A stretch of 64,000 bases of DNA from Eledone cirrhosa (Eukaryota), in assembly GCA_964016885.1 (NCBI GenBank), contig OZ024742.1:115134001-115198000 (forward strand). Reading direction: 5' to 3'. The notes under the pieces were generated by a model that was not told the origin of the DNA, made no database searches, and saw only the letters and a program-made list of their open reading frames with translations. How positions within the stretch are numbered: position 1 is the stretch's first letter; the number at the start of each line of letters is the position of its first letter. Below, piece by piece: positions 19,936-57,150 of the stretch. The translations under genes were made by a program, and so were the position numbers.

Positions 19936-19969
19936 GTAAGTGGCAAAAATATTATTATTATTATTATTT

Positions 19970-20374
19970 AGCCACACCGGCGGCAAGGCGCCGGAGCGGG
20001 CTCCACTACAACCACCAACTACAGTGGAGTTCATACCCCACCCAGACGCCACGGAATCTGGCATGGAGTATGAGGCAGGAGGGAAGAAGCAAACGATCTG
20101 CCACAAAAAAAAACAGAAAAAACCTTAGCTTCACCCTCCAAAAGTGAAGGCAGACAGAGAGGGGTAAAGGCTGCAAGGAGACTTGCAGCAGCACCACCAC
20201 CATCACCATCACCATCGCAAGCATCACCACCAACAACATGCACACTACCACCAGCGTCACCAAAAACACCAACATCGCAAACACAACAAAACACACACAC
20301 CCAACAACAACAACAAGAAAACAGCAACAAAATCACCCCTCCCCCAAAAGGTACACAGCCATAGACATGACAAA
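19970..20374 (+). mobile_element. Tx1-like ORF1 fragment
   Basis: Clear nucleotide and peptide similarity to 28100-28490 (RAPL.PPT.VE.IP.PDATES.ME.EAG). Confidence 0.8.
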
Positions 20375-20900
20375 TAAGCAAATCTTTATATTTTCGTAGC
20401 TTGTCAAATTCTTTTGCCGCGATATTGTGATCACATGGGGTGCTCATATCTATCAATAAACATACCTTGTTATGTTGATCTTTTCCAATGATTTCAAGTC
20501 TATTTGCTTTTATGGGCCTGTCAGTATGTACAGGAAAGTCCAAGAGAATTGTTACTTTTTCTCCTTCAGTTACAGGGTGATGATTGTACCACTTGACTTC
20601 AGCTTTGATTTTGTAATGACGACACACTACACAGTGTAGATATTGGACAACTCTGTCATGTCTATATTTGTATTCTACAGGTGCTAAAACTTGACATCCA
20701 GAGACTAAGTGATCCACTGTTTCAAACTCAGCATTGCAGAATGGGCACTTTGGGTTTATTCCGTTTCTCATCACAATGGCCTGGTAAATACGAGTCAATA
20801 AGCTTTGATCTTGGGCAGCTAAGATGAAGCATTCCCTCTCCGCATTTAGCCCTGAATTACGTAGCCACAGATGGGTGTGCTTTTGGTCATCATCAGCTTA
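20375..20900 (-). mobile_element. R4/Dong-like fragment (CCHC + RLE), third family
   Basis: AAQDQ, CPFC..ETVDHLVSGC, YKYRHD, TDRPIKANR, LIDMSTP, KLRKYKDL. Confidence 0.85.
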
Positions 20901-20944
20901 TTTGCTATTGTTATTATTATTATTATTATTATTATTATTATTAT

Positions 20945-21059
20945 TCCGAGTTCAAATTCCGCCGATGTTAACTTTGCCTTTCATCCTTACGGGGTCGATA
21001 AAATAAAGTACCAGTAATACACTAGGTAATTGCTGGCCTTGTGCCAAATGTAGAAACAA
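20945..21059 (+). mobile_element. 5'-truncated tRNA-derived SINE
   Basis: B box gagttcaaattcc, core gcctttcatccttacggggtcgataaaataaagtaccag, tail ggccttgtgccaaatgtagaaacaa. Confidence 0.85.
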
Positions 21060-21976
21060 ATCGGGCAATGTGATCGGTGGAAACTCCACCTGCAGGTTCT
21101 ATAGAGGATTAGTGCAGGGGAAGAGCGACGACGTACTTGGGGAAACTCTAGGCGTCGACGAAAATCGATTAGCCAATTTCTTCCGAAGAGCTTTCGGGCC
21201 GGGGCCTATGGACAAATTCCAGAAATCCCTGGCCTGGCAGTGCTACCGAGGAGCTTTGCCAATTAGGGATAACTTCTACAGGCATGGAGGTGCCCTCAGC
21301 CGGGCATGTCCGAGATGCGCGCAGGGCGACGAAACCGTCCTGCACGCACTCGTCAGTTTCCGAGCATTGCTTCCCTGTGGGTTTATGTCGAACATCTGCT
21401 GTCGCGTATAGGACGGATCCAGCTATCAGCTCAGTCCATCGCAAGGATTGCCCCACCCTCTTCCTTTAGCCGGGAAGGACAGGCAGTTTTTATCTGTCTG
21501 GTCGCCATGGCGAAAGAGATAGTATGGTGGACACGTTTGAAATGGCAAAAGACGAGCACTTACCTCTTCGGTGATGCCCTGATTAACTTTTTCAAATTTC
21601 ATTTGAAAAGGAAAATGAGGGTAGAGGGGGAAGTGCTCTCTTCCCAGCATGTTGTTGAAAGATGGGTGAGAGGGGCAAGAATGGCCCGAGTGAATGGGCC
21701 TACTCTGAGTATGTATCTGTAAATTAAAGGTGGAAAACTGGGAGAGTGCACTTGCCCTGGTGGTCAGGCTCACTGTGGCTTTTTAATGGGCTTTCTCCAC
21801 GAATGTCCCTCGTAAGTCCCCTCCCCCCTATTGTGGAATTTGTTATTGTTATATTTTTGTTACATCCTCTGTTTTTGTTTTTTACACGCAGAAATGGCCA
21901 TTTGTACCATCCTGTATTGTCCTGTACTGTACTTAATGTCTACTTTGTGTAAACCCTTGTGGTTAATATTGAAAGC
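21060..21976 (+). mobile_element. 5'-truncated Tx1-like element (C-terminal Zn finger + 3'UTR)
   Basis: LAWQCYRGALPIRD, CPRCAQGDETVLHAL; very similar to 36900-37815. Confidence 0.9.
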
Positions 21977-22002
21977 ATTCTTCTTCTTCTTATTATTATT
22001 AT

Positions 22003-55236: not shown

Positions 55237-55424
55237 GGGCTGTGGATTGGCAGTATCGGTAGAGTGTTGGACGCCATGTTTTGCAGCAATGAGTTACAGC
55301 CCTCTATGATCTGAGTTCATATCCCGCCGAGGTTAACTTTGCCTTTCACCCTACGGGATCGATAAAATAAAGTACCAGTAATACACTAGAATAATTTCTG
55401 GCCTTGTGACAAAAGTAGAAACAC
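55237..55424 (+). mobile_element. Full-length tRNA-derived SINE
   Basis: A box tggcagtatcgg, B box gagttcatatcc, conserved core, Tx1-like tail, (TTA)n. Confidence 0.88.
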
Positions 55425-55440
55425 TTATTATTATTATTAT

Positions 55441-56810
55441 TGTTCTTTGTGTCTCAGTCATTGATGTTGGTTAACTGGAAAGTTTGTTGGAATGATTATC
55501 AAGTCAGTACCTGCAGCCTCAGATATTCAGGACTTATCGGAGGCTTCTTGCTGTTCCCAGCAAGCATGCCTTTTGAAGTGTTCTAAAAAGCGGGGCGTGG
55601 CCAATTTTCTTTAACCATCCCTGGAAACTCTATGAGATAGTACCTAGTGTGCCTATGACAATCGGGACCACTTTGACTTCATGGAAGTTCCAAATCCTTT
55701 TTACCTCCCACGGTTAATTGTCACTCTCTCCTTCTCTTGCACTCGATTGTCGAATGGGCAGGCACGATCATTTTTCCTTATCCAAAACGACCAGGTCAGT
55801 TCTATTGTGTTCCAGTTTCTTGTCCGTCTGTATCCTAAAATCCCACAGCACCTTCACCTGATCGTTTTCTATCACAGACTCTGGCTTATGCTCATACCAC
55901 TTCTCAGAATGTGGTAAATTGTTTACTTTGCATAGGTGCCAGTGGGTCACCCTGCCCATCACACCATGTTTCCAGCCTGTATAGTGAGTCTGTGCTAGGT
56001 GTTTAGACTCGGATACAATGTGAGCCACAGTCTTCTCTCTCTCTCTACAGATCCTGCACAGTGGGCTAGCCTCCTCCTTGTAAATATGGTGTTTCAGGCA
56101 CTTCGTTTTGAGGGCCTGCTCTTGCGTAGCCATTAGCATTCCTTCTGTAGCCGTTTTAAGGTCTCCTCTTTTCAACCAGTTCCATGTCTGTGGATCTCTG
56201 ATTTCAGTTTTCTCAAAGAAGGTACTATGAAGGGATTTTTCATGAAGGTTGCTCTTTCTCCTTGCTGTTATTTCCTCCTTGGACATCCCCTGGTCTATTG
56301 TCCTCTCCTTCAGTACAATTCTGAGCATTGGCTCCCTACTATCAGTCACGTATTTGTGTAGGTTGTTTTTCTCCATCTGAACACAGTCCTCTATGCTGAT
56401 AAGACCTCTTCCACCTTCAGATCTCCTTAAGTAGAGTCTATCGATATCAATCCTCTTGTGGAACATGTTGTAGATAGGCAATAGCTTCCTAGTCTTCCTA
56501 TCCGTGTCTTTTAGTTCAGCAACATTCCATCTCATAATTCCCGCACTGTACCTAATAATAGACACAGCTCGGGAATTTACTGCAGTTATGGCATTCCTAC
56601 TGTTCAGATGTGACTTTAATACGCTCCTTACTCTCCGAAGGTATTCAGATCTTATCAATTCCTTCATGTTTTCGTTATTGATGTCATCAGCCTCCATAAC
56701 ACCCAAATACGTGTATCCTTTTTCAGTGTCAATTTCCTTTATCATATCACCTGTTGGTACCTGGATTCCGTTGCTTCTGCTCAATTTACCCCTCTTCATC
56801 ACAAGGACTC
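55441..56810 (-). mobile_element. 5'-truncated R4/Dong family B copy
   Basis: ORF 55768-56802 is highly similar to the corresponding part of 44739-46262. Confidence 0.93.
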
Positions 56811-56844
56811 TATTATTATTATCATTATTATTATTATTATTAAA

Positions 56845-57031
56845 GGGCGGTGAATTGGCAATATCCGTGGAGGGTCGGACGCCATGCTTTGACGCATAGA
56901 GTTACGGCCCTTGCCATTCTGAATTCAAATCCCGTCGAGGTTAACTTTGCCTTTCATCATTACGGGGTCGATGAAATAAAGTACCAGTAATACACTGGAC
57001 AATGGCTGGCCTTGTGCCAAATGTAGAAACA
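56845..57031 (+). mobile_element. Full-length tRNA-derived SINE
   Basis: A-box-like tggcaatatccg, B box gaattcaaatcc, core and tail as above; (TTA)n on both sides. Confidence 0.88.
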
Positions 57032-57075
57032 ATTATTATTATTATTACTATTCTTGCCGTTGTTGTTGTTTTTAT

Positions 57076-57150
57076 AATGTACTGGGGTCAATTTAGTCGA
57101 CATTTCCCCTCTCCTAAAATTGCTGGACTTGTGTATATTAGTAGAAAGCC
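57076..57150 (+). mobile_element. Older SINE 3' fragment
   Basis: tactggggtc..aattgctggacttgtg..agtagaaag then TTA; related to the SINE tail. Confidence 0.55.

Follow-up and report, generated by a model that had tools for sequence, protein, structure and literature searches.

Tx1-type and Dong/R4-type LINEs occupy (ATT)n repeats in opposite orientations in the genome of Eledone cirrhosa

The DNA stretch analyzed in this work (hereafter the window, i.e., the whole 64,000 nt of C3:115134001-115198000 in the 3.0-Gb genome of Eledone cirrhosa) carries an array of long and short interspersed nuclear elements (LINEs and SINEs) separated by (ATT)n tracts, which read (TTA)n in another phase and (TAA)n on the complementary strand. 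The array was dissected by self-BLAST, identification of open reading frames (ORFs), Pfam and tblastn searches, and with the use of intact genomic copies of the Tx1-type and Dong-type elements, retrieved as references. Between positions 19969 and 57150, 21 insertions were counted (self-BLAST, Pfam, tblastn), close to the approximately 20 stacked over 37 kb in the original prediction, which had been made from the sequence alone. These comprise eight pieces of elements encoding a reverse transcriptase (RT) and a restriction-like endonuclease (RLE) of the Dong/R4 type, seven pieces of Tx1-type elements encoding an apurinic/apyrimidinic-like endonuclease (APE) and an RT, and six pieces of a SINE (Table 1). 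As predicted, all eight Dong/R4-type pieces lie on the minus strand, and all six SINEs and six of the seven Tx1-type pieces lie on the plus strand; the seventh is a 69-nt antisense Tx1 scrap (55160-55228), which corresponds to the exception of about 65 nt recognized beforehand. The chance that 20 of 21 insertions fit any single class-by-strand rule was calculated by hand as at most ~1e-4.

An ATT/TTA tract is present at 18 of the 22 junctions, the outer ends counted (at least three units at 17 of them and two units at one), which bears out the claim that most junctions are (TTA)n tracts. The junctions 20377/8, 21059/60, 38391/2, and 55229 are tract-free, and at two others (21978-22001 and 26788-26839) TTC and TTA units are mixed. 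It had also been claimed that the 3′ ends of the elements enter the tracts; this holds in general, with the exception of two Dong pieces (20378-20905 and 38392-38740) and one Tx1 piece (19969-20377), which have lost their 3′ ends. Runs of (TTC)n next to (TTA)n tracts were seen in the window (21978-21989 and 26788-26839) as well as at loci L062, L090, L094, and L103; such runs often adjoin Dong 5′ ends starting with GAA units, and TTC is the target of Koshi.

The two LINE classes of the array are themselves heterogeneous, with three or more Tx1 5′ types and three Dong-type lineages. The best identities of the longer LINE pieces to copies elsewhere range from 88% to 99%, which indicates that the array was built up over time and not via a single duplication. 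A figure of 98% array coverage was set aside as circular, the references having been taken from the window. The search for these families gave no match in the remainder of the 64-kb window.

Table 1. Elements and tracts of the array (positions within the window)
Position	Strand	Feature	Remarks
19950..19968	+	Left-edge (ATT)n tract	
19969..20377	+	Tx1 ORF1-internal fragment, 3′ end lost	84% to 28109-28490
20378..20905	-	Fragment of Dong-type lineage C covering CCHC and RLE, 3′ end lost	tblastn 32% aa to Dong-B; 92% copy elsewhere
20944..21059	+	SINE, 5′-truncated, after (TTA)11	
21060..21977	+	Tx1 3′ fragment, 5′ junction without tract	91% to intact copies
22002..26787	-	Dong-A, full length 4.8 kb, broken frame	RVT_1 weak
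25935-26787	-	Dong-A 5′ untranslated region (UTR), part of 22002..26787	collinear with Dong-A body in L292, L295, L323, L324
26840..32099	+	Tx1 type A, 5′-truncated within ORF1, ORF2 broken	
32115..37817	+	Tx1 type B, full length, begins directly after ATT; APE, RT, zf-RVT; frames broken	Pfam PF03372, PF00078, PF13966
37836..37930	+	SINE, 5′-truncated, within Tx1 tail tract	
37980..38391	-	Dong-B-like 3′ fragment	
38392..38740	-	Dong-A fragment, 3′ end lost	
38765..41493	-	Dong-A, 5′-truncated	RVT_1 1e-19; 39-42% aa to Dong-B
41506..41537	+	Tx1 3′ tip, 32 nt, flanked by two tracts	
41538..41648	+	(ATT)37, longest tract	
41649..44549	-	Dong-B, 5′-truncated	
44586..49125	-	Dong-B, full length, young, one frameshift near 46280	98% to other copies
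49164..55024	+	Tx1 type C, full length, older	ORF2 54-70% aa identity to types A and B
55031..55135	+	SINE, 5′-truncated, after ATTATT at Tx1 tail	
55160..55228	-	Antisense Tx1 scrap, 69 nt, sole polarity exception	
55230..55424	+	SINE, near full length	
55446..56810	-	Dong-B-like, 5′-truncated	
56842..57031	+	SINE, full length ~190 nt, 3′ CUUGU hairpin	
57066..57150	+	Second SINE subfamily, 3′ part	
57151-57160		Right-edge tract	

The relation of the Tx1-type and Dong-type elements to the repeat was examined genome-wide. For full-length elements, each 5′ end was used to collect its best matches in the genome (the window's own copy was dropped), and a flank was scored as a tract when at least 10 of the 12 upstream bases matched (ATT)n or (TAA)n; in 60 evenly spaced 10-kb stretches (600 kb), used as the background, 3297 of 1,198,560 positions (0.28%) have an (ATT)n-matching flank. 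The 5′ flanks of full-length Tx1 elements are (ATT)n in 18/18 copies of type A (19 loci, one truncated and excluded), 28/29 of type B, and 22/29 of type C, and (TAA)n in none of the three types, in line with the (TTA)n-specific Tx1 lineage that had been proposed. Moreover, the start phase is fixed, i.e., ATT followed by G, in 18/18 copies of type A and 27/29 of type B. Conversely, the flanks of full-length Dong-B are (TAA)n in 24/29 copies (23 distinct flanks) and ATT in none, with a mixed phase, and the Dong-B 3′ ends inspected enter AAT repeats following a short irregular tail that is common to them.

Among loci L002-L330, an ATT tract precedes 38/60 and a TAA tract 3/60 of the 5′-truncated Tx1 copies, and TAA precedes 64/74 and ATT 1/74 of the 5′-truncated Dong copies (background ~1.3%). 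As the truncated Tx1 copies have lost any encoded head and still follow ATT, the tract is a target and not merely an encoded part of the element. The enrichment of Tx1 5′ flanks is thus genome-wide and extends to truncated copies. For comparison, a family is regarded as target-specific when one sequence type makes up >20% of its flanks (PMC4494074), and the corresponding share of Tx1 5′ flanks is here 63-100%. The targets of Kibi and Koshi, (TC)n and (TTC)n, were not matched, since the flanks are (ATT)n and TTC units occur only at a few mixed junctions. At irregular sites (L044, L159, and L186), target duplications of 12-18 nt starting with ATT were recognized by eye for Tx1, and the search for Dong duplications gave only 3/86 and 2/30 tips with inconsistent lengths. 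At L144, L131-L133, and L300, the first bases of the element recur as short repeats with tract in between (aborted 5′ joins); L131-L133, which have a single common flank, represent a segmental duplication on C4. Another recurring element end adjoins ATT tracts in the Tx1 sense at L011, L068, L293, and L096, and may belong to a fourth element that uses or seeds the niche.

The orientation of the elements was also determined in other arrays, at non-query junctions only, with duplicates removed, the window excluded, and an abutting tract of at least three units. Instead of random orientation, the polarity seen in the window was kept in 128/131 (Tx1), 194/203 (Dong), and 114/119 (SINE) cases; at 5′ junctions alone the values were 67/68, 110/111, and 63/67, and in the evenly spaced sample alone 8/8, 6/7, and 11/13, respectively. 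Several of the Dong exceptions are tracts within Dong's own 5′ UTR. Antisense Tx1 joined to sense pieces was observed at L183 1284-1570, L296 8630-9991, L323 1695-2047, and in the window (55160-55228); these joins resemble 5′ inversions produced by twin priming, and some of the polarity exceptions would be accounted for in this way. Dong is preceded by Tx1-C matches of the same orientation at L314 2021-2190 and L328 1-2246.

It had further been claimed that each insertion regenerates a target. The DNA flanking intact Tx1 (19 copies) and young Dong (20 copies) consists of these same families in 82% and 70%, respectively, compared with 7.2% of the even sample, and 15-18 of the 19-20 copies have a direct family neighbor on each side. 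SINE duplications start exactly at the 3′ end of an older Tx1 or SINE at L152, L156, L173, L183, and L197, which shows that tails are reused as targets and agrees with the claim. The array of the window is therefore a large instance of a common genomic structure.

The intact Tx1-type copies encode a 700-aa ORF1 and an ORF2 frame of 1161 aa, and dozens of genomic copies retain an open frame of 1150-1160 aa. An N-terminal APE, an RT, and a C-terminal zf-RVT domain (PF03372, PF00078, and PF13966) were identified by Pfam in ORF2 of the intact L292 and L310 copies; its best PDB match is human L1 ORF2p (2e-53), and the APE catalytic motifs align with those of the human L1 endonuclease (EN). A single-sequence fold of the APE domain had a predicted local distance difference test score (pLDDT) of 37, too low for use. 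The Pfam search with ORF1 gave no match, and a CCHC knuckle (C-x2-C-x4-H-x4-C), a feature characteristic of Tx1, was read in its translation. Among named relatives, a protein of Argonauta hians is closest to ORF2, with 74% identity along part of the sequence. In a quick version of a tree, built from 57 rows chosen from two hit lists and carrying long-branch warnings, ORF2 is joined with an Argonauta protein (support 99). This tree, in which curated Tx1, Kibi, Koshi, and Keno sequences are not represented, has as its nearest named entry a Stylophora protein with the automatic name “Transposon TX1” (support 85), and a long branch parts the APE class from the RLE class. The homolog row P0099 is not human L1. 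A sister clade of ORF2 (P0005-P0039) shows 40-46% identity, with some proteins having hundreds of cluster members in other assemblies, and its targets could date the ATT specificity. Distant relatives in metagenomes (23-41% identity) have an ATT/AAT run of at least four units in 6/80 loci, a figure of little weight, as many contigs stop at the element. The three Tx1 types carry unrelated 5′ ends. As ORF2 of the young type A and B copies (L292 and L310 compared with the window copies at 26840 and 32115) is 97% identical under these unrelated 5′ ends, and the 3′ tip is the same, swapping of the 5′ end is indicated, which suggests that the 5′ part of Tx1 was replaced, as in mammalian L1.

The Dong-type elements have a single 1141-aa ORF with RT, a CCHC finger, and a PD-(D/E)xK RLE. 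Their best PDB matches are R2 proteins, with the PD..D..EK motif of the RLE aligned, and the CCHC finger is whole in the Dong copies of the window, with one cysteine altered in L311. Dong-A and Dong-B proteins are 39-42% identical, and the lineage C fragment reaches 32% (tblastn). An HDV-like (hepatitis delta virus-like) ribozyme at the 5′ end of L311 gave no match in Rfam, no motif-based search being made. The Dong-type homolog list is almost devoid of named entries. The Tx1-clade and Dong labels should thus be read as putative assignments, based on architecture, target, and nearest names rather than on curated references.

The claim that all three classes share the (TAA)n niche stands for Tx1 and Dong and has to be withdrawn for the SINE, as an ATT tract lies upstream of only 4/29 best genomic and 4/37 evenly sampled copies (of 75 matches, those whose 3′ end could be read). 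Directly after the SINE, ATTAT is found in 29/37 evenly sampled copies (background 1.1%). An irregular word of 10-21 nt is repeated upstream at 33/89 SINE tips; among 28 such words inspected, most are located at the 5′ junction of the SINE itself, and four are too distant to count. The SINE is therefore a looser ATTAT targeter, which makes duplications of 10-21 nt and is not bound to the microsatellite.

The 3′ ends of the SINE and of all three Tx1 types carry a CUUGU loop on a 3-4 bp stem of family-specific sequence, located 11-12 nt before the tail, with equal spacing in SINE and Tx1. The first three pairs are kept in 74-77/80 Tx1-type and 102-105/108 SINE-type ends. Covariation is visible, as 87.5% of cells pair and three of four pairs change on both sides (slid controls, 15-54%), and RNAalifold predicts the same stem (consensus -2.87 kcal/mol). 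A common 3′ sequence with a covarying stem-loop, the trait of stringent SINE-LINE pairs, is thus found in the SINE and Tx1, and it is likely that Tx1 ORF2p copies the SINE, for which it would grip the common hairpin. In the search for a tRNA-related head of the SINE, ARAGORN gave no hits and Rfam no tRNA match at gathering level; the SINE may resemble the tRNA-derived octopus SINEs OK, OR1, and OR2. A literature search, with Repbase and supplements outside its reach, found no Tx1 partner for octopus SINEs. Another abundant repeat, absent from the window, has at its end a short, fixed run of TTA, after which come ACTA and TA repeats (L211 8459, L219 6465, L223 6080, L227 392, and L241 5136).

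In target-primed reverse transcription, the strand nicked first is the complement of the element's sense strand downstream. On this model, the Tx1 APE would nick the AAT strand and the Dong RLE the TTA strand, each nick freeing a 3′ end that would pair with the RNA tail. The AAT-ending primer is proposed for Tx1 and the SINE because their duplications start at ATT, and the primer on the TTA strand for Dong because it faces the opposite way. The duplication or the tail would split one tract into two, later copies would land in the new tract, and both LINE classes would find new ATT sites at the ends left by SINEs and Tx1. We consider it probable that a Tx1 lineage inserts in this manner into (ATT)n and that Dong/R4 elements enter the same repeat facing the opposite way, through nicks in opposite strands, with the fresh tract being reused; as far as can be inferred from sequence, opposite-strand nicking, as proposed in the original prediction, fits all the junction data.

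Several points weigh against this interpretation. Junctions cannot separate a choice made by the nuclease from a choice made by annealing of the RNA tail. The older type C is looser, with the ATT phase in only 7/29 copies, and 22/60 truncated Tx1 copies are without a tract at the threshold used. Loci L002-L330 were mostly picked as best query matches, and the evenly spaced 600 kb sample yielded only three truncated Tx1 (two with ATT) and three truncated Dong (three with TAA). The Tx1 duplication is hardly readable within pure tracts (1/109 tips with an informative word), and 27/48 tracts of at least four units in the even sample touch no library element. Finally, the CUUGU hairpin is tiny and was read off the same sequences, from only about four families.

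One alternative is that the target is chosen at priming, i.e., that the APE is loose and AT-preferring, and only AAT-ending primers anneal to the AUU-ending RNA. The SINE sites, which require just ATTAT, often running on as TA repeats, would fit such a scheme, and the APE hairpin loop region aligns gapless to human L1 EN, whereas the Tx1L-loop graft 2v0r needs two gaps. Annealing also aids SART1 priming, which speaks for this scheme; against it, EN domain swaps shifted the specificity between SART1 and TRAS1 (PMC7265360). Given that full-length Tx1 of types A and B lie in long tracts with a fixed 5′ phase, for which tail annealing alone is insufficient, we regard a choice at priming as rather unlikely.

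Mobilization of the SINE by another LINE (RTE, CR1, or Dong), with a coincidental Tx1-like polarity, seems unlikely as well. RTE and CR1 families were recently active in Octopus vulgaris (PMC13282606), and further ATT-ending repeats are present in the even sample; however, the loop, the covarying stem, and the tail spacing are common to SINE and Tx1, the SINE duplications begin with ATT as in Tx1, and the polarity is opposite to that of Dong. The remaining possibility, that Tx1 does not target at all and the tracts are encoded heads and tails, with Dong alone targeting tails and copies accumulating passively in neutral DNA (as proposed for Drosophila Waldo; PMC3812793), accounts for the antiparallel position of Dong, given that ATT nearly always follows Tx1 and SINE 3′ ends, but is largely refuted and highly improbable, since headless Tx1 copies still follow ATT, the SINE duplications show ATTAT present prior to insertion, and passive accumulation yields no strand polarity. 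As the sole source of the tracts, an encoded head or tail is excluded by the truncated copies and the SINE duplications.

Outside the array, the window contains a long inverted duplication (4957-11682) with a strong strand skew, whose pieces of 0.8 and 1.5 kb are 85-88% identical. At 60327-62304, a 744-nt inverted repeat of 98% identity was found; it matches at its ends a short element located at 16665-16910 and is probably a young foldback or MITE-like (miniature inverted-repeat transposable element-like) DNA transposon.

TRAS1 and SART1 are both APE elements of the R1 clade, and R1 and R2 share the 28S rDNA. As in the present case, an APE and an RLE element have a target class in common in the R1/R2 pair and in that of Keno (Tx1, APE; PMC4494074) and Utopia (RLE; PMC4640811), which use U2 snRNA genes, but the targets of those pairs are RNA genes, whereas here the repeat is regenerated by the elements themselves. 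The RLE, Tx1, and R1 elements were distinguished as three target-specific groups (PMC4640811). In Bombyx, the telomeric TTAGG repeat receives TRAS1 in one direction and SART1 in the other (PMC7265360), and these are, like the elements described here, two LINE families in one tandem repeat; they have similar structures and a telomeric target, in contrast to the APE and RLE elements on a dispersed trinucleotide repeat.

Tx1-clade APE elements in microsatellites include Kibi in (TC)n, Koshi in (TTC)n, and crocodilian Tx1 in (TTCC)n/(TTTC)n (PMC4494074). The likeness to Kibi and Koshi concerns the type of target; in the mollusc-type genome studied here, the target is (ATT)n, the complement of Dong's. 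Waldo, Mino, Kibi, and Koshi were listed together with Dong on TAA, including the snail DongBg (PMC3812793), and Dong was placed in the R4 lineage with TAA upstream (PMC3774820). With Dong of B. mori, DongAg, and DongBg of Biomphalaria, the elements found here share the single ORF, the RT and C-terminal RLE, and the (TAA)n insertion, without essential difference, apart from three lineages sharing arrays with an APE element. Dong-R4 and L1-Tx1 are active in O. vulgaris, where hotspots were mapped and targets were not analysed (2026 annotation, PMC13282606). In crocodilians, SINEU shares its target preference with Tx1-Mar (PMC4494074), and a covarying 3′ hairpin marks stringent SINE-LINE pairs, e.g., those of maize L1 and the L2 clade, while L1-clade tail-sharing pairs are named, in the accessible part of the same source, only in plants and an alga (PMC3747384). 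In comparison with these pairs, both the target and the 3′ hairpin are here common to a SINE and an animal Tx1-type LINE. A literature search without reach into Repbase, Kojima and Fujiwara 2004, or supplements, which may hold one, found no (ATT)n-targeting Tx1.

Every ingredient of the system has a precedent, and it is neat rather than startling. It adds (ATT)n to the targets of Tx1 microsatellite specialists and suggests which LINE probably carries a SINE of very high abundance. In the broadest interpretation, which we consider evenly balanced between right and wrong, APE and RLE, nucleases of unrelated folds, would have arrived by convergence at opposite strands of a single trinucleotide repeat. 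Together with a SINE that is recognized by its hairpin and seeds ATT sites throughout the genome, they would form a three-party niche, in which any new insertion would provide the rivals with landing sites; this loop would be the source of the retrotransposon arrays of octopods and of many (TAA)n microsatellites. Two unrelated nucleases would then approach the same duplex from opposite sides and, as intact young copies of both exist, the question of whether microsatellite targeting is encoded in the nuclease or in RNA priming could be addressed on a single substrate. For octopus-type genomes, the finding offers a local mechanism for transposon hotspots.

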